From the IMG/VR virus record IMGVR_UViG_3300033153_009093, positions 116,375-180,374 of that record: a stretch of 64,000 bases of DNA; one strand, 5' to 3'. This stretch comes from a virus. A program made the translations under genes and the position numbers. Of this stretch, positions 1 to 57,933 are shown piece by piece (positions within the stretch are counted from its first letter, which is position 1; every line of letters begins with the position of its first letter). Below the pieces are notes generated by a model, which worked only from the letters and a program-made list of their open reading frames with translations, made no database searches and was not told the origin of the DNA.

Positions 1-729
1 CTCATCAGAATGCCAATAACTGCCATTAAATTCAATCGCAAAACTCTTTGAGGGTATTACTATATCCAGTTCATAAGGCTTGATTATAGACCTATTGGAC
101 TGTTCATAATCAATATTTAAAGAGTCAAGAAAAGAACATATTTCTTTTTCCGGTTTTGAAACTTGATTTGAGCATTTTGGACAACTTCTTCCGCTTAAAT
201 GACTATTTGGTGTTTGTTTAAATATACCATGCTTAGGGCAAATTATTTTTATTTTAACCAGACTACCTTTATATTTTATTAATGAGTAGTCGTATTTATT
301 ATTATGTAATTTATTTGATTTATTAATAAAAGTATCATCTGTTATAGTTCGTCTATTACATTTTGGACAACCTGAGCCATATAAATGAGAATTTGCTTCT
401 TGCTAAAATATACCATGAACTTTACAAATAATTTTAATCTTTTTATGAATGGTTATATAATTAACTAACTTATAATTATATTTCTAACAATGTACTTTAA
501 TTGCTTTTTCAATAAATTCTTCTGTAGTTAATTTTTGAAAACCTGAACACTTTAGACAACCTTGTCCGCGTAAGTGTTTATTAGGAGTTTGATTAAATTC
601 TCCATGAATAGGGCAAAGTATTTTAACTTTTACATGAGCATTTACATACTTAACTAATTTATAATTATATTTCTAACCATGAACATTTATAGCTCGTTCT
701 ATAAATTTTTCAGTCGTTAATCTCTTCAT
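1..729 (-). CDS. Homing-endonuclease-like protein with 3 zinc-binding repeats (DUF723/CapR-like) and a C-terminal PD-(D/E)xK (Vsr-like) domain; 3 in-frame TAG; runs off the window edge
   Basis: Hand translation from ATG 729: three repeats of F(I)..A..VHG*KYNY..V.Y......IICP.HG.F.Q.PN.HL.G.GCPKC, then ELDIVIPSKSFAIEFNGSYWHSDE. TAG at 673-675, 484-486, 403-405; no TAA/TGA. Missing from the ORF track. Confidence 0.85.
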
Positions 730-5649: not shown

Positions 5650-6144
5650 ATGCTTCGGATACCTAATATATTTATAGAAAATATTACCCATATATCAGCT
5701 AAACCTTTCTTTGATATAAAATTTGATTCCATAAAAGGAGTTAATATAAATAATGATTTTTTAGACATCATTTTTTACAGGTCATTAATAGGAAAAGTAT
5801 CTTCTAAAAAAAATGGAATCAAAATAAGATACTTTGATGAAAATAATAATATATTACATAATTCTAATATTTCAAAATTTAAAAAAACTATTTATGAAAA
5901 CAAAAAAATAGTATCAAATAAAAATAGTATCAAAATTAAAAAAAGTAATAATTGTAAATACCTAACTCGATTAGAAATTATTTTTACATATAATAGTATA
6001 GACACTATTATATTTGATACTAAAATTCCACAGAATACAATATTTTCTGAAAACACTAATGGAACTATTAAAAGTGGCATAGCTATTCCTTTAAATGAAA
6101 CTAATATTGAATTGTATAATAAATTTCAAATAATATATAAATAA
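5650..6144 (+). CDS. Hypothetical protein upstream of the TnpB-like gene
   Basis: 164-aa ORF with AAGGA upstream; stop abuts ATG 6146. Confidence 0.65.
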   Translation: MLRIPNIFIENITHISAKPFFDIKFDSIKGVNINNDFLDIIFYRSLIGKVSSKKNGIKIRYFDENNNILHNSNISKFKKTIYENKKIVSNKNSIKIKKSNNCKYLTRLEIIFTYNSIDTIIFDTKIPQNTIFSENTNGTIKSGIAIPLNETNIELYNKFQIIYK

Positions 6145-6145
6145 T

Positions 6146-7477
6146 ATGAAAAAGTGTATAAAAAATTATTCTATAAACATATCATCATCTAATTATAATA
6201 AATTAACCAATTATTTATTATACTATAATAAGTGTAAAAATTTATTTTATAATAAATATTAGAATGATATCGGTACAATATATTTACCATATAAATATGA
6301 ACTACGAGATACATTAGTTTCAAATATAAAAAATAATGATTTGAATATTAATGAATTGGATTTATTAAAAAGCGTTCCCGCTAAATTATAGAAAAACGCA
6401 TTAACTGAATCTATAACTAATTTAAAATCTAATTAGTCTAATACAAAAAATAGAATTAGACAAAAAATAAAAAAGAACAAAAATTTTTCTGAAAAAGATA
6501 CTCATTATTTATATTATGTACTTAAATCAAATAACATATTACATAATATAAATAATGGAGATTTGAATATAACCTTAGAAAAATTTGATGTAAATTATAA
6601 AAAACTTAATTCATATTTATATCGACAAATAAAAAAAGAAAAAAGAAAACCTTATTCTAAAAGTAATAGTTATATTATAGATAGTAGCTCGCAAATATTA
6701 TACAAACAAATAGATAATAATTTAATTTGTTTCCTATCAACATTAAAAAAACGAGAAAGGATTTTAATCCGTTTATCAAATAGTATAAAATATAAAGGCG
6801 ATATTCGTATAGTATTAAAAAATAATAAAATGGAACTACATAAAGTTATTAATATTAAACCTCAATTAAATAACAACAATTCTATTACTGGAATTTATAT
6901 TGATTTTAATAATTTATTCACAACCCAAAATAATATTTATGGTAAAAATTTCGATAAACTATTAAAAAAATTTGCACATATTATTCACTGTAAATCAAAT
7001 AAAAGGGAAATCCTTAAATCAATGAATAATATACTAATACAAAAAAATAACTTAGGTACAAAAAAATAGCACAGTAAAAAAAGAAAATTTATTAATGAAT
7101 TAAATTCCTTTATAAATTTGAATTTGAATTTATTAATTAAAGAAGAGCGGCCTAAAACTATTATTATAAAAAAAATAAATAAATATTTATTATATAATAA
7201 TAGAGATAATTTATTTAATATTCCAAACCATCATTTATAGATCTTAAATAATTATATAATAAATTACATTTATAAACGATTAGAATACAAAACACAATTA
7301 AATCAAATTAATATAATATTAGATAGTTCAAATTATACAATCAAAGTATGTAATAATTGTAAAAGTAGAAATACTATTATTACAAAAGGGTACTTTAAAT
7401 GTAATAATTGCATGGTTAGTATAACTAAAACATCTAATACAATAAACAATATGATTGAGCATCACGGTGTTAATTAA
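6146..7477 (+). CDS. tnpB: TnpB (IS200/IS605 OrfB)-like protein with degenerate RuvC, 443 aa; 5 in-frame TAG
   Basis: Open from ATG 6146 to TAA 7477 except TAG at 6260, 6389, 6434, 7067, 7238. N-terminal HTH-like region, RuvC-I-like GIYIDFNNL, KRLEYK, NYTIKVCNNC..FKCNNC zinc finger, terminal N..NNM. Confidence 0.75.
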
Positions 7478-7587
7478 TGTTGTTTACCTAACTGGTTTTT
7501 GGAAAATGTATATTTATATACATTACTGGTTTAACCTAACTTCACGGAAAGAGAAATTTAAATTCAGTTAATAGTAAATTCCCTTAT

Positions 7588-7618
7588 ACCGGAGAAGATT
7601 TTCTTCTCCGGTTTTTTT
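7588..7618 (+). terminator. Intrinsic terminator between convergent tnpB-like and DUF5662-like genes
   Basis: 11-bp stem ACCGGAGAAGA/TCTTCTCCGGT plus T-tract. Confidence 0.85.
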
Positions 7619-8069
7619 ATAGATACTTTTCAATTTTTTTATTAGTACTTTCATGTAAAATCATATCACTTTTATTTTTATTAAAATATGATTTTGGTGT
7701 GCCTTCAAATTTTCTCGACATTCCCCTCTAATCGGCAATCATTTGAAGTATGTATTTTTTTGGCATTTCAATAGGAATTATTTCATTTTTCCTTGTTACA
7801 GATACCTAGTAATTCTAATGATGTTTATTTCTTTTTTGATGTTTATTCTACCCTTGTTGAAATAATTTATCGTTTCCATCAGATTTACAATAATTATTTA
7901 AGCTATCTTTCTTTTCAAAAAAGATAGCAGATGGTATAAATTCGGATGGTAAAAATTTTGATAAGTCATGAGTAATTGCATGATAATATAGTCCCATGTT
8001 GATACATTCTATTCCTACATTCTTTTTATGCTCAATAATATATTTAAAATATTTCTAATATTTATTCAT
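7617..8069 (-). CDS. DUF5662-like (HD-related) protein, 150 aa; 5 in-frame TAG
   Basis: MNKY*KYFKYIIEHK..HDLSKFLPSEF..G*NKHQKRNKHH*NY*V..MPKKY..MIAD*RGM. TAG at 8055, 7848, 7815, 7806, 7728. Missing from the ORF track. Confidence 0.85.
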
Positions 8070-8079
8070 TTTTTAACCT

Positions 8080-9084
8080 TTAATTAAATAATTTATTATT
8101 TAACTTAATAATTTTTGATTTCATATTAGCAATAGAAAAGTTTATACTTTTACTTATATCTTTTTCAACGAATATATAATAATACATTACCATTGACATA
8201 AATATATCTCCGCATCCTGAAGTAGTATTTATATTATTTATAATAGTATGACTTATATCTATTTTAAATTCTTTTATTTCTTTTTCATTACTATTATCAA
8301 AATAAATAATATCTTTAATGCCTCTAGTTATAATAAGGTACTTATAATCATACGCATATATTAAATCTTTTACCGGTTCATATTCTTTTTCATTTAGTTG
8401 TATTATAGTTTCGGTATTATATACGCTCTTTAATTTAGAAATCAATTCTTTAAAATATAATATCTTATGAGGTTTTGTATTTAAAAATAATGTATCTATT
8501 TTCCATTCATTATAAATAATATCATTTAATAAATTTTTTATAGATTCTTCAGTAAAGTACCCCTTATCATAATCTATAAGTATTAAAGAATTATTTTTTT
8601 CTTTAAACGCATAATTACAATTGATATGTTTCATTTTTATATCATTATCAATATCAAACCGATAAAAAATTTTGTTTTGTTTTTTTGAATAGAATCTAAA
8701 TTTTACTGTCGGTTTAATAGTATCATTAAGATAATATATCGGCCTCATTTTAATTATATCAAAATGGCGATAGTTCTTATTGCTTAGATATTTTATACTT
8801 CTATCAAATATCTCTTGTAAATTAAATCCATGCAATTTATCGTCATAGTTCACGTAATTAAAATTTGGTAATAAGTATTTAACATTATAGTCAAAATTTA
8901 AATCGTTGTTGATAATATCTAATAAATTTTCTAATATAAATCCACAACCACCGGGGTATACCGATAATGAATTATAATAACCTTTATATGATTCACTATT
9001 TACAATTTCTTGATTTTGTGATATATTTACATTATCAATATAAACATCTGCAATATAGTCACCTAAAATTACACTATTATTCAT
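8080..9084 (-). CDS. PfkB-family sugar kinase (HldE/RfaE kinase-domain-like)
   Basis: PGGCG, DYDKG, LIITRG and NTTSGCGDIF match the PGGAAN / DY.KG / DT.GAGD patterns. Confidence 0.7.
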   Translation of the reverse strand: MNNSVILGDYIADVYIDNVNISQNQEIVNSESYKGYYNSLSVYPGGCGFILENLLDIINNDLNFDYNVKYLLPNFNYVNYDDKLHGFNLQEIFDRSIKYLSNKNYRHFDIIKMRPIYYLNDTIKPTVKFRFYSKKQNKIFYRFDIDNDIKMKHINCNYAFKEKNNSLILIDYDKGYFTEESIKNLLNDIIYNEWKIDTLFLNTKPHKILYFKELISKLKSVYNTETIIQLNEKEYEPVKDLIYAYDYKYLIITRGIKDIIYFDNSNEKEIKEFKIDISHTIINNINTTSGCGDIFMSMVMYYYIFVEKDISKSINFSIANMKSKIIKLNNKLFN

Positions 9085-9573: not shown

Positions 9574-12039
9574 TTAATCACATCTTGAATATCCACAGGA
9601 TATACATTTTATACAGCCGCCTTCATCTAATAATATTTCCTTACAATTGGGACAGTTATTACTATTATTAGAATATACATTTTCATTTATATATACCTTT
9701 AATACCCTTGAAACTACAGCTACAAAATCACTAACAAAATTACTAGATTTTTTAAGTTGTTTTATAATGAATTCATGATATACTCCATGTCTCAATGATA
9801 ATGAAATCATCCTTGTTAATGCTTTATATTCATCATTCATGAATAATTCAGTTATTTCATTATATTCAATATATGAGTTTCTAAATGGAATTTTTAAAGT
9901 ATAATTCCCATGATTTTTTATTATTATTCCTTTTTTAACATTTTGCGAAATATTAAAAAATTCATTTTTCTTCCCGGCAAATATTTCATATGGAGCATCG
10001 TTTAATATTCCTATAAGAACTATCCACTTTTCTCCAGCCACTGAACAGTGATGTATTTTACAACTTAATTCCTTTGGCCTCTTCGGTGCGCATTGATAAG
10101 TGATACTATCAGGTCTATATAATTTATCAATGCAACTTTTTACTTTTTTCTTATCATATTTTAATTTATGCTCTATTGGATTTTCAAAAATCAAGATACC
10201 TTCTCTTGAACCTTCACGATACACTGACAACGCTTTTAAGCCTTTATTAAAGGCATCGGAGTATATATCCCCTATTTTTTGAAAATCAAAATCAAAGGGC
10301 AAATTATACGTTACAGAGATGGCGGCATCAACCCATCTTTGAACCTTGCTCATTAATTCTACCTTTTTAAAGGGGTCAATTTCATGAGCAGGTGATAATA
10401 AATCAGTATCGATATATTTATTTACAATATTAATTATTTTTTCACCAATTTTACCATCTGTATCTAACTCTGATCCGCTAAAATTATTAATTAAATTATA
10501 ATCAAATACATCACATTTCCCTATTTCTTTCATTTTGCTTAATACTATTTTTTTAATAACACTTGGTAAAACAAAATAGTAATCATATTCATTTTTAGAA
10601 ACTGCTCTTGTTTTTCTCCAATAAGCAAACCCTATAGTTGGTTCTATGCCAGATGATAGGCAATCATTCGGAAATGTCATTGAAATTGAACCAGTGGGGG
10701 CTACTGATAATAAAGCTCCATTTCTAATTCCAGTATTGTAAAATAAATCTTTTAAATCACTAAACTCGTTAAATAAATTTTTTAAAAATTTAGTTTCTTT
10801 TAATGTTCCTGTTTCTTTTCCACGTATCCAAGCAGAACATGGCCCTCTTTCGATGGCTAATTCGCAAGAAGCTTTAAATGCATAATATTGATAATATTTA
10901 AAAAATAAATCAACTGCCATAATAGCTTCATCTGAATCATATTTAATATTATTATTATAAAACCACATATGAAGGTTTGTTACACCTAATCCAATTTCTC
11001 TTAAATCTTTAACAATTTTTAATTGTTCTGGTAATGGAGATTTATAATCATTGTCAATTTCAAATTGAATTACATTATCCATAAACCTAACCAATGAATA
11101 AGTTTTCTCTTTCATAAAATCATGAAAATTATTAGTATCAATAAAAGGCACTTCTTCCATATTTAAAGATGCCAATGCACATACTCCATAATTAGGTAAA
11201 GGTTTTTCAGAACAAGCATTTGTTCCTATAATTTCATAACCTAACGCTTCTTGAATAGAGCCGTCTTTCATCCTATCAATGAATTGTATACCCGGTTCAG
11301 CATGATCATACGATTGCTTACATAATAAATTAAATATATAAGATGCATCTACAAATTTTGAAATCTTATGATCTTTTAAATCGAAATATAATTCCCATTT
11401 TTCATTATTATGAACTGCCTTCATAAAATTATCTGATATTTGCACAGATATATTCATATTTTTTAAAGTATCTAAATCACTTTTAGCTGTAATAAAATCA
11501 ATTACATCAGGATGAGAATCTTTAATAGCACTAAGAATGGCCGGTCTTCTACCTTTCTGACCGACCTCATCCGCAATAGAATCAAAAGATTTCATCCAAT
11601 TAATAACACCTTCTGATACTTCAGAACTATTATTAACCGCAGTTCCTTTAGGTCTTAATTTTGAAAATTCTATACCAAGGCCTTGTCTATATGCCGCCAT
11701 TTTAGCACATTCATATCTAGCTTTATAAATAGCTTCTAAAGTATCATCACCTATAACTACACTAGTACAATTAAATAAACTGATTTTTTTAGATTTATTA
11801 TTAATACCGGATATAATAGAACCACCGGGCCGCCAAATGCCTTTTAATAAATCCTCTTTCCAGTTATTTTTCCATGAAGTTTCTTCAGTTTCAATTGAAA
11901 CTGAAGAAACTTCAGTCGCAATATTATCAAAACATTGTCTAACTGTTTGGGTTTTATTTTTTAAATACTTAGATTTAAAAATATCTATTCTCATTTGATC
12001 ATTATTAAAATAATCATTTATAGCTGTATTATCTTTCAT
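9574..12039 (-). CDS. nrdJ: Class II (adenosylcobalamin-dependent) ribonucleotide reductase with C-terminal TSCPD/Zn-ribbon
   Basis: PGGSII, LFNC, TNACSEKPL, VAPTGSIS; C-terminal CPNC..GGC.KC..CGYSRC; no nrdB nearby. Confidence 0.9.
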   Translation of the reverse strand: MKDNTAINDYFNNDQMRIDIFKSKYLKNKTQTVRQCFDNIATEVSSVSIETEETSWKNNWKEDLLKGIWRPGGSIISGINNKSKKISLFNCTSVVIGDDTLEAIYKARYECAKMAAYRQGLGIEFSKLRPKGTAVNNSSEVSEGVINWMKSFDSIADEVGQKGRRPAILSAIKDSHPDVIDFITAKSDLDTLKNMNISVQISDNFMKAVHNNEKWELYFDLKDHKISKFVDASYIFNLLCKQSYDHAEPGIQFIDRMKDGSIQEALGYEIIGTNACSEKPLPNYGVCALASLNMEEVPFIDTNNFHDFMKEKTYSLVRFMDNVIQFEIDNDYKSPLPEQLKIVKDLREIGLGVTNLHMWFYNNNIKYDSDEAIMAVDLFFKYYQYYAFKASCELAIERGPCSAWIRGKETGTLKETKFLKNLFNEFSDLKDLFYNTGIRNGALLSVAPTGSISMTFPNDCLSSGIEPTIGFAYWRKTRAVSKNEYDYYFVLPSVIKKIVLSKMKEIGKCDVFDYNLINNFSGSELDTDGKIGEKIINIVNKYIDTDLLSPAHEIDPFKKVELMSKVQRWVDAAISVTYNLPFDFDFQKIGDIYSDAFNKGLKALSVYREGSREGILIFENPIEHKLKYDKKKVKSCIDKLYRPDSITYQCAPKRPKELSCKIHHCSVAGEKWIVLIGILNDAPYEIFAGKKNEFFNISQNVKKGIIIKNHGNYTLKIPFRNSYIEYNEITELFMNDEYKALTRMISLSLRHGVYHEFIIKQLKKSSNFVSDFVAVVSRVLKVYINENVYSNNSNNCPNCKEILLDEGGCIKCISCGYSRCD

Positions 12040-12042
12040 AAA

Positions 12043-12654
12043 TTAAATACCAAAAAATTTATCAACATCTTCATATAACTGCAATAACCCATTATTCTTA
12101 TTAATAAATTTATATTTAAATCTTATTTTATCCAATTCAATTTCTGATACATGTTCGTCCCATTTTTTTGTTGTAGGATTTTCTATCTTGGCGCATGTAG
12201 ATTCTTTTTGATTATTAACGTAAGTAAATTCATTAATAAATCTTATATCATCTACTATATAAGATTTGTCTAAATGATAAGCGTTTCTAAAACAAGTAAC
12301 CCAATGATAAGAGTTTCTAACTCTAAAAATATCTGTTCCTATATATTGTAATAAATATCTATAAATATCGCAAATTTTACAATATTCTATAGCTTTAATG
12401 CTGTCTATATTTTCAATTGTTAATTTATCATACTTAAATTTTTTTAATTCCCTTTTTAAAGGGTCAAGATTTAATACCTTCCCAGTATAAAAATTGTTAT
12501 TAGTTTTATCAATATCGGTTAATCCTGAGATATTATATACTAGCCTTTTCAATGGTGTAGCAAAAGAATAAATTGGTATATTTAATCGTCTTGATAAATA
12601 TTTTGATATCTCAGTTTTTCCTGATCTCTTTTTTCCCGCTAATCCTATAATCAT
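12043..12654 (-). CDS. Deoxynucleoside monophosphate kinase
   Basis: IIGLAGKKRSGKT, SFATPLK, LQYIGTD, DDIRF.NE, HVSE. Confidence 0.9.
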   Translation of the reverse strand: MIIGLAGKKRSGKTEISKYLSRRLNIPIYSFATPLKRLVYNISGLTDIDKTNNNFYTGKVLNLDPLKRELKKFKYDKLTIENIDSIKAIEYCKICDIYRYLLQYIGTDIFRVRNSYHWVTCFRNAYHLDKSYIVDDIRFINEFTYVNNQKESTCAKIENPTTKKWDEHVSEIELDKIRFKYKFINKNNGLLQLYEDVDKFFGI

Positions 12655-12698
12655 ACTTTATCCTATAATTATATTTAATTTTTCTTTTTTCAATAATA

Positions 12699-13169
12699 TT
12701 ATTTTAAACCAGTACTGCCTATACCACCACCTCTATCGTTTCCTAATTCTTTTAATTGTTTAACAGAATGAGCAACAATATATTTAACTGGTATTACTCT
12801 GTCAATAATTGCTTGTGCTACTCTATCGCCCTTTTTAAAACTAACAACTTCACCGCCAAGATTATACCACATGACAAAGATTTCTCGACCCCTATAATCG
12901 GAGTCAATTATACCTGTTGTATTTTTAAAAATTAGCTCAGTTTTAGCCGAAAGGCCTGATCTAGGATATATCTTCATACAATAACCATCAGGTATTGATA
13001 TAAATAATCCCGTTTTAATCATTTTATTTTCAAATGGAGTTATTGTAAAATCTTCCGAACACCTAATATCTACAGCGGCAGAATTAATAGTTGCGTAATT
13101 CATGTCTTGTATATCATCGCCATTGTCATTTTTTTCTGACCAAAAATGTACTTCTACAGTTTCTTGCAT
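12699..13169 (-). CDS. dut: dUTPase (trimeric)
   Basis: AAVDI, PRSGL, GIIDSDYRG, GDRVAQ, RGGGIGSTG. Confidence 0.95.
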   Translation of the reverse strand: MQETVEVHFWSEKNDNGDDIQDMNYATINSAAVDIRCSEDFTITPFENKMIKTGLFISIPDGYCMKIYPRSGLSAKTELIFKNTTGIIDSDYRGREIFVMWYNLGGEVVSFKKGDRVAQAIIDRVIPVKYIVAHSVKQLKELGNDRGGGIGSTGLK

Positions 13170-16476: not shown

Positions 16477-17712
16477 TTATGTCAATGTTTCAAGAATATA
16501 ATTTTTAAAATTATCAACAATTTGTTTTTTAACTGTAATATTCCATTCATTACAACAGCACGGAGCATAATCTTTATATCTCATATCATAGTCTTCAGAT
16601 TCATGTAACGATTTTTGAAAATCGCAAATATCGTCCGCCTTCTTTACATGAATAAAACAAGGAGAAGTTGGACAATCGGATTTTATGTTTAAAGATTTTG
16701 TATATTTATAATATTTAGTTCTGCATTCATATGGAAATGGGCCGTATAACCCAATAGCAGGCTTTTCAATACCTTCACGAAAATGAAATAGTGCAGTATC
16801 AACACTAATACAAAGAGTAGCATCATATGCATCAAGAAAAAATTCATCAAGATTTTTAGCTGCTATAATTTTAATTCTGTCATCTTTTAAATTATTAATA
16901 TAATTTATATCTTCGATTCTTAAATTCAATTCATGGATATATATATTTACATCCTTATTATTAATACATTCAATTACGGATTCATAAATATCCTGAAATC
17001 TCATAGACCTAATTATAGCAGTAGATCTAGGATTAATTAAAATACTAGGTTTATCAGAATCTATATTAGATTTATTATTATTTATTCTTGCTGTTTTTAA
17101 TTGAGGTCTTCCCCATTCAAAGTCAAACTCATCAATCCCGATAGTTTTATATTGTAATTCATACCAATTATCTTTACTATTTTCAATAACACCTTCATAA
17201 TAAATAGTCTTATACCTACTATTTACTCGTTTTTTTTCTAAAGAGTTATTACTTTTATATCTTACAATTGGCGAAAAATAAGATATAAATGTCACTGGTT
17301 CTCGATACCATTTAAACACGCTTCTATATTTTTCTTGAGAAATGAATTTTAAATTTTTAGATTTCTTATTTAAAAATTGTACTATATTCATTGAAATAGA
17401 AGATAAAGCGATTAAATCGCCTATGCCTCCGGTTCTTAATATAATAGGAAATACCATTTTATTTTCTTTTGTAAAATCTAATTTATCTATAACATCGTCA
17501 ATATTTTTTTCATATTTAACAATTTTATTATAAATATTTTTTACTTGAGATGCTATCATATGTCTATCAGAAGTTCTAATAACTTCTATTAACCTTTCTT
17601 TAAATGTTAACCATATAGTATCAGCGAATAAATACATATGTTTAGGTTGTATTTTTATATCATTATCATTAATATTGATAGAAATACTTTTTTTAAATTC
17701 AACAATTTTCAT
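16477..17712 (-). CDS. Glycosyltransferase family 9 (heptosyltransferase-like)
   Basis: RTGGIGDLI and ISVDTALFH..GIEKPAIGLYGP match the GT9 GIGD / I.VDTG..H.A..L..P...L.GP motifs. Confidence 0.8.
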   Translation of the reverse strand: MKIVEFKKSISININDNDIKIQPKHMYLFADTIWLTFKERLIEVIRTSDRHMIASQVKNIYNKIVKYEKNIDDVIDKLDFTKENKMVFPIILRTGGIGDLIALSSISMNIVQFLNKKSKNLKFISQEKYRSVFKWYREPVTFISYFSPIVRYKSNNSLEKKRVNSRYKTIYYEGVIENSKDNWYELQYKTIGIDEFDFEWGRPQLKTARINNNKSNIDSDKPSILINPRSTAIIRSMRFQDIYESVIECINNKDVNIYIHELNLRIEDINYINNLKDDRIKIIAAKNLDEFFLDAYDATLCISVDTALFHFREGIEKPAIGLYGPFPYECRTKYYKYTKSLNIKSDCPTSPCFIHVKKADDICDFQKSLHESEDYDMRYKDYAPCCCNEWNITVKKQIVDNFKNYILETLT

Positions 17713-18649
17713 TAATATTACACCTTATATTATTTATTTTTTTTAATAGATAATTATAATTATCTATTATATTTTTTTCATTAACAATATTTAATGATAT
17801 ATTATCATCAAAATTATTAATATATAACTTCATTATTTTTAATAGTTCTGTTATATTAAATTGCTTACAATTATAACAAGCATCTTCTATACAGTTTATA
17901 TCATCAAAATTTATATTGAAGTATTTTATAAAATACTTCAATAAATTATTATACAAATGACATTCAGTACCAGTTTTATATTTAATGATATACTTTTTCA
18001 TATTATCTATATCATCAAAATTAATAAAATTATTTAATGATTTTGACATTTTTTCTTTTTCATTGCTTCCATAAATAACATTATTAGAAATATTAATTTT
18101 TATATTTTTTATATTTAATTTTTTATAAATATCTTTCATAATGTTAATATTTGATTTTTGATCATTTGCTAAAAAAACAGTTGTTATTTCATTATCATTA
18201 TGATATAATAATACATCAAAAGTTTGTAAAACTGGATATAATAAAAATCCCAAAGATTTATTCTTACTATTTTTAAATGTAGGATTTTTTAATAATTTTG
18301 ATGTATTTATTAACGGAAGATATTTATATGTTAAAGAAGTATGATAATTATTAATGTTTTTATTATTTTGAAATATAAATAATAATTTATTAATATTATT
18401 ATCAATGTTTTTATTATTATATATTAAATATGTTTTATATAATGAATAAATCTTTTTTGCTAGTAAAATAGAATTATTATTTATTTTATTAGCTGAAATA
18501 TTAGATAATTCTGAATGAGTTTCAGCTAGTAAAATAAATATTTTATTAACATTTTTAAACATTATATTATCAAACATATTTAAAATTGTCATAACATGTC
18601 CAATATGTAAATTATTTCCCGTTGATCTAATTCCAAAATATATATTCAT
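17699..18649 (-). CDS. trpS: Tryptophanyl-tRNA synthetase (divergent, Thermotoga-type-like)
   Basis: GIRSTG..LHIGH (HIGH), GFLLYPVLQTFDVLLY, NDQK....KDIYKKLN, KMSKS; C-x22-C-x4-C-x2-C near the C-terminus. Confidence 0.8.
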   Translation of the reverse strand: MNIYFGIRSTGNNLHIGHVMTILNMFDNIMFKNVNKIFILLAETHSELSNISANKINNNSILLAKKIYSLYKTYLIYNNKNIDNNINKLLFIFQNNKNINNYHTSLTYKYLPLINTSKLLKNPTFKNSKNKSLGFLLYPVLQTFDVLLYHNDNEITTVFLANDQKSNINIMKDIYKKLNIKNIKINISNNVIYGSNEKEKMSKSLNNFINFDDIDNMKKYIIKYKTGTECHLYNNLLKYFIKYFNINFDDINCIEDACYNCKQFNITELLKIMKLYINNFDDNISLNIVNEKNIIDNYNYLLKKINNIRCNINENC

Positions 18650-28090: not shown

Positions 28091-29863
28091 ATGAAATTAA
28101 AAAGTAATAATATTAAATTAAATTTAGCAAATAGAAATAGTATAAAAAAAAATACATCAACTCCTAGTAAAAATTAGGATAGTATTACTGATAATCCTGC
28201 CATTAGAGATAAAATATTATCAAATACTAAATATGATATTCTTAATGAATCAGGATCAGAAATTAATAACGCTGCAATGAAAGCGTTTACTGATATGGGA
28301 ATAGCTGTCAGTGATGTAAATGTAAATGATCCGTTATCTCATAAAAATGTTATTAAGAGAGTTAATTTATATTTAAAAAGATTTCCGGAAGTCGAATATA
28401 TTGTAGATATGATAGCATCATCCGTGATATATTCATCATCCAGTAATACTAAAAAAATACAATGTACGTTAAGAGGAGATTATAAAACGTTAAATGGTTC
28501 GGACAGCACAATATCAGACAGTACAGAAAATGTCGATATCAGTGTCGATATCAATGATATAAAAGTTAAAAAAATAGATTCATAGTATGATGATTTAAAT
28601 TTACAAATTGGTAATTTATTTAAAAAGAATAATATTAAATTAGCTCTATATGATTTTATAAAGTCTATAGTAAATTATGGATGTAGTATATTTTATATCA
28701 ATGATACTGCAAAATACGAAGATGTTTCATTTTATAGTTTGGATGAATTAGATTTTTCATTTGAAAAAGATGAGGTTCATACTAATGCACTTTTGAATGA
28801 ATTGAAAAGAGAAGATAGTAAAATATTTGAAATATCAGAATTAAATAATGAAATTAAAAAGTTTAATTCAAATATAGTAACTGCAAAATTAAAAGAAGAC
28901 GATACAGAGTTGGATATATCAAAAATGTATTTTATTTCCGAAAAAGGTATTTTTGGAAAATCTAAGGTAATGAAAATAATTCATTATTTAAAGACTGTTG
29001 AGTTATTGGAGCTATCTTTACTTATTGAAAGATTATCAAAAACGAAAACTACACATGTATAGAAACTGGATTTAGATAAAGTTGAAGAAGAAGATTTATC
29101 TTCAACATTATTATTATATAGAAATTTATTAAAATCAAAGGTAGCACTGAATTACGATGAAGAAAATGATAATATGCAATTTGATTTTGTAAAAAATCTA
29201 GTTGATAATAATATTTTGGTACCTACAGAAAATGATAACTTAACAATTGATACATTAAAATCTGATTTTAAGCCATTATTAGATGATGTAAGTTATTATT
29301 AGGATAAAATATATTTATCAATGGGACTACCTTCGTATTACAGAAACTCCGATTCAAAGACGTATACAAACAATAATATGTTAATAATGCATGATAATGT
29401 ATATTCTATGAAAATTAGACATTATCAACTTATAATAAATAATTTATTAACATTTTAGATTGAGAATTGGTTAAAAGTTAATTTTTCAAAAATATCAGTT
29501 AAATACTTAAATATAAATATACCAGAATTTATTCCTTTAAGTGAGCGGAAAGAAACAGATATCGATAAATCTGGAAAATTTATCAATATGTTTTCGCAAT
29601 TAGAAAGTACTTTAGGTGTAAAATTAAAAAGAGAATTTGTATTAAATAAATTATTTCCTAATGATATTATATCCGATATGGTAGAAGTGGAAGAAATGGA
29701 TATTAAAAATGATATAGATTCTAATGAAAATAAAAAAGATGAAATAATGTCAATGTTTGAAGAAGGTGAAAACAAAAAAGAAAGCCTAAAGTTTTTTAGT
29801 ATCACTAAACAAGATAATATAGATATTATTAGGTATGATTTAAATTTAAGTATAAATTGGTGA
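28091..29863 (+). CDS. Portal vertex protein (T4 gp20-like), 590 aa; 5 in-frame TAG
   Basis: TAG at 28175, 28583, 29060, 29300, 29456 join three track ORFs. LELSLLIERLSK..HV*KLD and LDDVSYY*DKIYLSMGLP align with gp20 [18 protein letters not shown] and EDIRWFRQALYMALRVP (recalled). Confidence 0.8.
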
Positions 29864-51702: not shown

Positions 51703-51924
51703 TTACCCTTTAAATTTAGTTAATACTTTTGATAGCAACGTTTGATATTCATTTAAAATATTATTAGTATATTCATTTGTGCAGCATATACCTGTTTCGG
51801 TGTATGCCATATAGTTACTTCCTATGTAACTATATGGACTTGTACAATTTTTATTATATGCAACTATTTTAACAATATCGCCATTATTTGTTAAATACTC
51901 TTTATTATACTTTAAACTAATCAT
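51703..51924 (-). CDS. Hypothetical protein
   Basis: 73-aa ORF. Confidence 0.6.
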   Translation of the reverse strand: MISLKYNKEYLTNNGDIVKIVAYNKNCTSPYSYIGSNYMAYTETGICCTNEYTNNILNEYQTLLSKVLTKFKG

Positions 51925-52345
51925 TTTTTATTTGTAAGGCTTTTAGATTGCTCATATCTTGCTTTAGCCCATCAATACATTGTTGGAAATATTTATCAAG
52001 TTCATTGACATGATTATTTATAAGCTCATTCCATTTTTCAGTGCAATCTTTTTTATTATCAAAAATATATAATTCATTTCCACAATACCCCCTCCAACCA
52101 GTATTATCAACTGGAGACAAGACTTTTTTTGACGGTTGATCATTCTTTTTTAAAACAAGAAAATGAGATGTAGAATAATGTATTGTTTTATTTGATGGTA
52201 ATTTTTCATTAGAAATAATAATACATTTACTAGGTGTTACTTTTCTTAATGGTTTTTTATGAAAGTCCGGTTGATTATAATCACAAATCCACACAATTTT
52301 ATTATCATGTTTACCTTCTCTCATTTCTTTTGTTGATATTTGCAT
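51917..52345 (-). CDS. Hypothetical protein (ends at TAG 51917, or at TAA 51905 on readthrough)
   Basis: 142-aa ORF. Confidence 0.7.
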   Translation of the reverse strand: MQISTKEMREGKHDNKIVWICDYNQPDFHKKPLRKVTPSKCIIISNEKLPSNKTIHYSTSHFLVLKKNDQPSKKVLSPVDNTGWRGYCGNELYIFDNKKDCTEKWNELINNHVNELDKYFQQCIDGLKQDMSNLKALQIKND

Positions 52346-55606: not shown

Positions 55607-55965
55607 TGGTGGAGATGGAGGGAGTCGAACCCTCGTCATGAATATAGTCCCTCTATATAATTATTTACATGCATAGCTCTATTTAATCAGGTTTCATACT
55701 TTAGAGCTAAATAAAGCAAACACTCTATAGGATATATCCCGTTAAATTCATCGTTGATTACAGGTATGTTTCAACAACTATCAGATGAAGTCGATGGAAT
55801 GTTTAAATTATCTGAGTCAAATAATCATTCCAGCAAAGCTGATCAAGCAGCCATTGCAATTGCGTAATCGTCAGCAATTATATTTACAGTAAACCAAATA
55901 ACGCATTGATTAAAAGCGACATGTTATACAAACTTTCTATACCATTCGATACCTTGTTCATCCCC
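55607..55965 (-). ncRNA. ssrA: tmRNA
   Basis: Acceptor stem GGGGATG/CATCTCC-A-CCA with G3-U Ala wobble, T-arm GAGGGTTCGACTCCCTC, tag ORF ADDYAIAMAA-TGA; 359 nt. Confidence 0.95.
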
Positions 55966-57698: not shown

Positions 57699-57747
57699 TT
57701 TAATTTTTTCTAATTATAAAAATATTTAATTTGATGATTTATTTATT

Positions 57748-57933
57748 CTAACAACAATATTCAACTAATCGATCTTTGATTTCTTTTTTCCCAAATATTC
57801 TCATGGATTTATTACATTGCTTTCTTGTAAAATTTCTCGCTGCTTTCCCTGCTCCTGACCCTTTTTGAAATCTATGTCTATATTCAAATCCAAATGTTCT
57901 CCAATAACTTTCTCGTTTAGATTTTGGTTTCAT
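57748..57933 (-). CDS. Small basic protein (TAG followed two codons later by TAA)
   Basis: 61-aa ORF. Confidence 0.55.
   Translation of the reverse strand: MKPKSKRESYWRTFGFEYRHRFQKGSGAGKAARNFTRKQCNKSMRIFGKKEIKDRLVEYCC

Follow-up and report, generated by a model that had tools for sequence, protein, structure and literature searches.

The stretch of DNA analysed here (the window, 64,000 nucleotides (nt)) makes up the final 64 kb of IMG/VR virus record IMGVR_UViG_3300033153_009093. This record, complete at 180,374 bp, is a distantly T4-like phage genome of 24% GC with inverted terminal repeats. On its minus strand the window carries a gene of the DUF5662 family with five in-frame TAG triplets at columns where the family has mostly tryptophan. 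Positions below are those of the window unless the genome or a related phage is named.

7617–8069, minus strand: gene of the DUF5662 family with 150 codons and a terminal TAA, containing five in-frame TAG and no TGG.

The gene begins with ATG at 8067–8069 and ends with TAA at 7617–7619. A sequence-only reading, which left the strand unstated, had counted five TAG, no TGG, four CAA and no internal TAA or TGA, and the codon count agrees: TAG falls at codons 5, 74, 85, 88 and 114 (each reading as 'cta' on the plus strand), TGG and TGA are absent, TAA occurs as the terminator only, and glutamine is written CAA four times (codons 71, 72, 78 and 109) and never CAG. The motifs that had been described as undamaged (HDLSKF, H..RNKHH and MIAD) are all intact in the translation as THDLSKF, HQKRNKHH and QMIAD, and the assignment to a DUF5662-like family is borne out by Pfam. 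With TAG translated as tryptophan, the protein scores 114.1 bits against PF18907 (DUF5662) over profile positions 2–153 of 156, making it a full-length member; the gathering cut-off is 27 bits, which even the translation with glutamine at TAG passes. The profile's preference at the TAG sites is for tryptophan, the score falling to 101.6 bits with phenylalanine, 98.9 with tyrosine, 96.3 with leucine and 95.1 with cysteine, and further to 92.7 with serine, 91.6 with glutamine, 90.4 with glycine, 90.1 with lysine and 88.6 with glutamate.

Homologues were sought in a collection of 5.8 billion proteins with a deliberately unfavourable query, in which TAG was translated as glutamine. Of the 200 homologues returned, the best 120, at 57–71% identity, were aligned. 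The five TAG columns are the sole columns of this alignment with a tryptophan majority (76–100% tryptophan), glutamine occurs at each of them in 0 of 120 homologues, and the conserved glutamine columns 71, 78 and 109 are CAA in the phage gene. The chance that five random positions among 150 would match the tryptophan-majority columns is 1/C(150,5), or 1.7 × 10−9. At the DNA level, codons 74, 85, 88 and 114 are TGG in all 20 IMG/VR DUF5662 loci compared. The claim that every tryptophan position of the gene is a TAG, at least four of them replacing conserved residues, is thus upheld; the refuting outcome named for it, family columns not dominated by tryptophan at these sites, did not occur, and the family pattern put forward in its support (GW..HQKRNKHHWNYW and ADW.G) agrees with the real consensus. 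The five codons are as follows.

8055–8057, minus strand: TAG codon 5; tryptophan in 91 of 120 homologues, with leucine, phenylalanine or isoleucine in the others.
7848–7850, minus strand: TAG codon 74; tryptophan in 117 of 120, TGG in 20 of 20 loci; an intact GGG glycine codon stands directly before it.
7815–7817, minus strand: TAG codon 85; invariant W85, tryptophan in 120 of 120, TGG in 20 of 20 loci; adjoins the invariant His83-His84.
7806–7808, minus strand: TAG codon 88; tryptophan in 120 of 120, TGG in 20 of 20 loci.
7728–7730, minus strand: TAG codon 114; tryptophan in 119 of 120, TGG in 20 of 20 loci; adjoins the invariant Asp113.

We consider it highly probable that the DUF5662 gene is intact and that each of the five TAGs in it is a sense codon for tryptophan. 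As judged by codon comparison, it is the clearest single-gene sign that TAG is read as tryptophan in this 180-kb phage and its relatives. The sequence-only reading had called it the cleanest single test of codon identity in the window, an estimate that stands, as most other TAG-bearing genes tested had no Pfam or PHROG match: PHROGs gave none for ten large TAG-rich open reading frames (ORFs), and in 20 other ORFs containing TAG, Pfam recognised no domains but ClpP, SLT and zinc-finger/Vsr-like ones. ClpP was rejected as a codon test because the one TAG in its gene falls beyond the part that aligns with PDB chains. A search of IMG/VR and metagenomes for the DNA pattern NKHH-TAG-NY-TAG gave three matches, all due to chance and none with DUF5662 homology.

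Several further lines of evidence extend the same assignment beyond this gene. First, TAG and TGG interchange between related phages. No DUF5662 gene was found in a 276-kb relative, so the exchange is not visible in the DUF5662 gene itself; codons were compared across phages in the portal gene.

28091–29863, plus strand: portal gene, with five TAG and two TGG; its homologues carry Pfam PF07230.

Five phages were included: the one studied here, a 166-kb JGI contig (L032), two Logan contigs (L033 and L034) and the complete 276-kb IMG/VR phage IMGVR_UViG_3300021166_000052 (L036, here called G001), which has 29.5% GC and 22 tRNAs. The portal TAG columns are mostly tryptophan in homologues. Among the five phages, six columns show TAG and TGG exchanged for one another; one column pairs TAG with TAC, TTT or TAT. 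Several portal homologues in the database end exactly at TAG positions, and others have glutamine where the family has tryptophan. The portal proteins called under code 15 (P0124, P0127, P0128, P0133 and P0134, from loci L033, L034 and L035) carry glutamine at conserved tryptophan columns, and for P0124 and P0128 these residues were checked in the DNA and are TAG codons. Genes of the JGI relative, called under code 11, are broken into fragments. In 29 orthologue pairs with that relative, TAG of the present phage faces TAG 11 times, TGG 7 times, TAT twice and nothing else. Across 80 pairs of orthologues shared with G001, TAG stands opposite TAG 146 times, tyrosine 54 times, tryptophan 46 times, phenylalanine 13 times and glutamine once, a profile like that of TGG. 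Four independent related assemblies, from other samples, also have TAG at tryptophan columns, and since they repeat the TAG/TGG pattern it is the clade, rather than a single assembly, that uses the code. G001 itself has 418 in-frame TAG and 686 TGG, a ratio suggestive of a codon swap at an earlier stage. Searches of IMG/VR with the synthetase described below and with the terminase found no close relatives.

Second, TAG and TGG are partitioned among genes throughout the genome. With TAG read through, 220 ORFs cover 93% of the genome and end in 182 TAA and 38 TGA stops. These ORFs hold 303 in-frame TAG and 292 TGG, with 40 genes using only TAG, 98 only TGG and 28 both (88.7 expected under random labelling). 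TAG plus TGG make up 1.26% of codons in the TAG-dominant genes (n = 66) and 1.16% in the TGG-dominant genes (n = 100), and glutamine codons 2.09% and 2.33%, respectively. TAG positions are evenly distributed along ORFs (Kolmogorov–Smirnov P = 0.56). In-frame TGG occurs at 0.49 per kb in TAG-using genes against 3.81 in TGG genes; off-frame TGG is similar in the two groups (2.96 and 4.41 per kb against 2.71 and 4.66), so that the depletion is limited to the reading frame. The TAG-using genes, 81 kb in all, have no in-frame TAA or TGA at all, though both are abundant off-frame, and their overall GG frequency is undepleted. The argument, made for the DUF5662 gene from its letters, that neutral decay should also have produced TGA and TAA therefore holds genome-wide.

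Third, the terminase, a distantly T4 gp17-like protein with nine TAGs, was compared with 150 cluster representatives, again found with a query in which TAG was translated as glutamine. Four TAG columns have tryptophan in 108 of 140, 127 of 142, 114 of 140 and 51 of 141 sequences (36–89%); of the others, one has phenylalanine (96 of 123), one leucine (91 of 140) and three are variable. All terminase TAG columns pooled have 40% tryptophan and 3% glutamine. An alignment to T4 gp17 in the PDB was set aside as a test, being uninformative alone at the too distant level of about 25% identity.

Fourth, the phage carries candidate machinery for decoding TAG, with counterparts in the 276-kb relative.

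Genome 108714–108787, minus strand: tRNA(CUA), found by ARAGORN, 59.4 bits on Rfam, 7.6 kb upstream of the window.
17699–18649, minus strand: divergent class Ic aminoacyl-tRNA synthetase resembling tryptophanyl-tRNA synthetase (TrpRS), 83.6 bits on Pfam tRNA-synt_1b, with HIGH and KMSKS motifs.
G001 112953–113043, plus strand: tRNA(CUA) of 91 nt, with C1–G72, U73 and CCA in common with the phage tRNA and a long variable arm.
G001 75293–76276, plus strand: TrpRS orthologue, 50% identical to the window synthetase.

The tRNA(CUA), which has C1–G72, U73 and an encoded CCA, is the only tRNA that ARAGORN finds in the 180-kb genome, and it is most likely the decoder of UAG. The synthetase gene contains neither TAG nor TGG. 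Every PDB sequence match of the enzyme is a TrpRS, 5 of 5 when the single sequence is the query and 9 of 9 for a two-sequence profile, and TrpRS 2g36 from Thermotoga maritima ranks first. We infer that the phage enzyme charges the tRNA(CUA) with tryptophan. Among the tRNAs of G001 is a tRNA-Gln(UUG) and no tRNA-Trp(CCA). Three cysteines in the C-terminal part of the TrpRS-like protein (C230, C258 and C261) are kept in both phages; the T. maritima enzyme binds an iron–sulfur cluster near its anticodon-binding domain.

Several observations weigh against a tryptophan code. The tRNA(CUA) has U73 and C1–G72 rather than G73, a feature of bacterial tRNA-Trp. Terminase TAGs 212, 281 and 309 align with leucine, with glutamate, aspartate or glycine, and with phenylalanine, and three TAGs of a homing-endonuclease-like paralogue, introduced below, face asparagine, asparagine and lysine; not every TAG is an ancestral tryptophan site. 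No release factor (PF00472), such as an RF2 that would spare TAG, was found in the complete 180-kb genome, by a search that was positive in 10 of 14 control genomes, and no other means of countering host RF1 was found in the genome. Two more such points, the NCBIfam scores of the window synthetase and the variable arm of the G001 tRNA, belong to the case for tyrosine.

Under a reading of TAG as tyrosine or some other aromatic, the phage's class Ic enzyme would be TyrRS-like and the tRNA a Tyr-type amber suppressor. NCBIfam does score the window enzyme slightly higher for tyrS, at 40.3 bits, against 32.1 bits for TrpRS, with neither value near its cut-off, whereas the G001 copy scores 57.9 as trpS against 43.5 as tyrS, and no PDB sequence match of the synthetase is a TyrRS. 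The long variable arm on the relative's tRNA(CUA) is a trait of bacterial tRNA-Tyr. Tyrosine and phenylalanine give the next-best Pfam scores for DUF5662; however, four of its TAG columns have 97–100% tryptophan and essentially no tyrosine. The orthologue partners of TAG include TAT or TAC about as often as TGG, yet in the G001 comparisons TAG faces tryptophan in 14.6% of cases against 0.9% for genuine tyrosine codons, and its whole profile is that of TGG. Finally, this assignment would leave the TAG genes with only 0.15% tryptophan. We regard tyrosine or another aromatic as quite improbable.

Glutamine, as in code-15 phages, would give a DUF5662 protein with this residue at five former tryptophan sites. 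It is the sole TAG reassignment reported for phages that differ in code from their host, for which only TAG read as glutamine and TGA read as tryptophan have been described (Borges et al. preprint, 10.1101/2021.08.26.457843); 28 of 29 phage tRNA(CUA) inserted glutamine in Escherichia coli extracts (a 2025 preprint, in which a phage TrpRS:tRNA(UCA) pair was also characterised), and public pipelines already translate the genes of this clade in that way. The codons themselves point elsewhere: glutamine is absent from all five DUF5662 columns and costs 22.5 Pfam bits there, TAG pairs with glutamine once in 314 orthologue comparisons, and neither CAA nor CAG ever stands at a portal TAG column. The phage, moreover, carries a TrpRS-like enzyme. 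Were TAG glutamine, 66 genes would be left with 0.15% tryptophan and 3.2% glutamine, against 1.15% and 2.3% elsewhere, and half of the proteome would therefore be nearly without tryptophan. Both the glutamine and the tyrosine assignments are disfavoured by the partner profiles of TAG in related phages, and we hold glutamine to be highly improbable.

That the gene is dead or its TAGs unreal, through pseudogene decay, GG-to-AG hypermutation, regional mutation bias, miscalled modified bases or assembly error, is scarcely credible: TGG becomes TAG by one G-to-A transition in a genome of 24% GC, but decay, hypermutation, mutation bias and miscalling are excluded by the near-exclusivity of codon use, the even spread of TAG, the restriction of the effect to the reading frame with off-frame TGG and GG frequency undiminished and off-frame stops abundant, and the intact GGG codon abutting TAG74, and against this rival stand also the retention of all the family's invariant residues, the same pattern in the four independent assemblies and the presence of a matching tRNA(CUA).

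As far as codon comparison and the machinery genes indicate, then, TAG is read as tryptophan rather than glutamine in this phage and its relatives; the identity of the inserted residue is drawn from these two sources. In its wider form, we find reasonably likely the proposal of a natural TAG-to-tryptophan code in bacterial viruses. Its users would be a clade of large, AT-rich phages distantly resembling T4, sampled in at least five metagenomic assemblies; an orthogonal-looking pair of a divergent TrpRS and a U73 tRNA(CUA) would run it, and it would be used selectively, in presumed virion genes and in accessory or mobile genes, which public pipelines at present either fragment or mistranslate as code 15.

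Among the roughly 100 TGG-writing genes, those identified belong to replication, nucleotide metabolism and the synthetase neighbourhood. The roughly 66 TAG-writing genes include the portal, the terminase, other large ORFs that presumably encode virion proteins, and accessory or mobile genes; DUF5662, a TnpB-like gene and a homing-endonuclease-like gene are examples of the last kind and are TAG-only amid TGG-only replication and nucleotide-metabolism genes. The features concerned, with the intergenic site beside the DUF5662 gene, are these.

6146–7477, plus strand: TnpB-like gene, convergent neighbour of the DUF5662 gene, with five TAG and no TGG; 23.9 bits on Pfam Cas12f1-like_TNB, below the 26.3-bit cut-off.
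7588–7612, plus strand: GC-rich hairpin followed by a T-run, between the convergent TnpB-like and DUF5662 genes; the sole terminator-like site in 7300–8500, against 0.1 expected from shuffles.
1–729, minus strand, and genome 39814–41268 (L002:19814–L003:1268): homing-endonuclease-like paralogues, 54% identical, with DUF723, DUF4379 and Vsr-like matches.
9574–13169, minus strand: nucleotide-metabolism block of dUTPase, dNMP kinase and ribonucleotide reductase with a TSCPD domain, using TGG only.
55607–55965, minus strand: transfer-messenger RNA (tmRNA) gene, its tag peptide being ADDYAIAMAA; ARAGORN reports just two structured RNA genes genome-wide, of which this is one.

The TnpB-like gene served as a second codon test within the window, and its TAG columns, aromatic or tryptophan, favour the same reading. 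In its three homologues, the five TAG columns have tyrosine, histidine and tryptophan; tryptophan, leucine and tryptophan; tryptophan in all three; tyrosine, tyrosine and leucine; and histidine and two gaps, the two gapped sequences having tryptophan one column later. The TnpB-like mobile element appears to be adapted to the phage's code. A 164-amino-acid ORF with no Pfam match precedes the TnpB-like gene (the element region spans 5650–7612), and the strong hairpin terminator is some 110 nt further downstream than the TnpB-like gene, space enough for a guide RNA. Of the two homing-endonuclease-like paralogues, one writes TGG and the other TAG; paralogues within the genome offer too few TAG columns for a codon test. 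When phages were searched by blastn with the tRNA(CUA), the match was confined to the anticodon arm of suppressor tRNAs from Acinetobacter T4-like phages (86% identity over 37 nt) and carries no information on the identity of the tRNA. These phages, of about 168 kb (MK278860.1, MT949699.1 and others), carry tRNA(CUA) labelled tRNA-Pyl or tRNA-TERM.

The partition of codons may be related to the timing of expression. TAG is nearly absent from the TGG-only genes, among them those identified as replication and nucleotide-metabolism genes, which suggests that TAG is not a sense codon for the host. The tRNA(CUA) and the TrpRS, whose genes are readable under the standard code, would be made first; as the pair accumulates, UAG would come to be read as tryptophan and full-length protein would be made from TAG-bearing genes such as DUF5662, the expression of which would thereby be delayed. 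Besides virion genes, recoding may in this way restrain accessory and nuclease-like genes. We infer late or delayed expression of the TAG genes, and some observations sit poorly with it. The DUF5662 gene is separated by 10 nt from a TGG-only run upstream of it on the same strand, made up of an unknown ORF and the genes for dUTPase, dNMP kinase and ribonucleotide reductase. Regions upstream of TAG genes show no enrichment of the T4 late-promoter motif TATAAATA, and neither this motif nor any 7- or 8-mer found de novo upstream of genes separates TAG from TGG genes. Several genes have a TAG within their last one to five codons with a TAA close after it (51905–52345 and 57739–57933, both on the minus strand, and L003:15925–18711); until the suppressor is made, such a near-terminal TAG could serve to end translation, and from then on it could encode tryptophan.

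What the DUF5662 protein does was approached through its predicted structure. An AlphaFold2 model, built on 44 sequences, has a predicted local distance difference test score of 90.3 and a mainly helical fold with one short beta-hairpin. The family's invariant H14, H34, D35, H77, H83, H84 and D113 are all kept in the phage gene, and W85, W88 and W114 are its TAG codons. Across the 44 sequences, H30, H34-D35, H77, H83-H84 and D113 are invariant or nearly so and are putative metal ligands, and the tryptophans encoded by TAG at 85, 88 and 114 would lie beside two of these putative sites, His83-His84 and Asp113. The top structural matches in the VIA comparison are PgpH (Z 6.3, 121 residues aligned, 4.0 Å), an HD-GYP domain (Z 6.1) and Bd1817 (Z 5.8); none of them reaches the value below which the tool advises caution with helical proteins. 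On the model and the conserved residues, the protein is probably a small HD-type metal-dependent phosphohydrolase. With HD-superfamily phosphohydrolases such as PgpH and HD-GYP proteins it shares the order of invariants His...His-Asp...His...His-His...Asp, and HD-domain phosphodiesterases are its top structural matches. Unlike them, DUF5662 has no published function (a literature search for one found nothing) and no sequence-level match to a solved structure: no significant match came from PDB sequences searched with a profile of the DUF5662 alignment, and Foldseek of the model against the PDB returned nothing at E ≤ 0.001. The middling Z of 6.3 for the HD-fold match also counts against this assignment of function.

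If true, a phage that reads TAG as tryptophan departs from the pattern of glutamine for TAG and tryptophan for TGA. In E. coli su7, a CUA anticodon on tRNA-Trp draws GlnRS; a TAG-to-tryptophan code therefore probably needs a dedicated synthetase, for which the phage holds a candidate. For genetic-code expansion, it would provide an interesting TrpRS:tRNA(CUA) pair of natural origin that may be orthogonal. Gene callers limited to code 15 for TAG place glutamine at conserved tryptophan sites, and the clade's database proteins are already affected. The phage is also a test case for recoding as an expression gate, the gated set including nuclease-like accessory genes amid TGG-only replication genes.

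The assignment of TAG to tryptophan has a precedent in NCBI translation table 32, the plastid code of Balanophoraceae, whose genome is very AT-rich. The phage shares with it the codon assignment and an AT-rich genome; it differs in being a bacterial virus that uses TAG in part of its genes and has its own tRNA and synthetase, whereas the plastid code is genome-wide. Full-text searches of the literature found no description of a phage reading TAG as tryptophan, or of table 32 in phages. The study of theta ribozymes comes near, with a tryptophan isotype for 19.4% of 180 phage suppressor tRNAs (tRNA-Sup) and code 32 called 'rarely reported' (PMC10879173). Such tRNAs likewise hint at TAG being read as tryptophan in phages; unlike the present analysis, that study rests on prediction of tRNA isotype, with no alignment or codon evidence, and beside the tRNA(CUA) described here Rfam detects neither a theta ribozyme nor any other family.

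Among phages that recode TGA, the Jade phages carry modules of TrpRS, tRNA(UCA) and RF1, and the recoding pattern as a whole has been attributed to host GlnRS and TrpRS that are easily hijacked (Borges et al. preprint, 10.1101/2021.08.26.457843). In the TGA-to-tryptophan module, as in the phage studied here, a phage TrpRS and a suppressor tRNA turn a stop into tryptophan and the machinery genes avoid the recoded codon; here, by contrast, the codon and anticodon are TAG and CUA in place of TGA and UCA, no release factor is encoded and the tRNA has U73. Finally, as in the code-15 phages (crAss-like, Lak, Garnet and others; 10.1101/2021.08.26.457843, PMC9523058), amber is reassigned, a tRNA(CUA) is carried, the recoded codon is used in a subset of genes and the remaining genes are readable in the standard code. 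The present phage differs from them in reading TAG, on the comparisons above, as tryptophan rather than glutamine, in the synonym with which TAG exchanges, TGG rather than CAA or CAG, and in carrying a candidate TrpRS alongside its tRNA.

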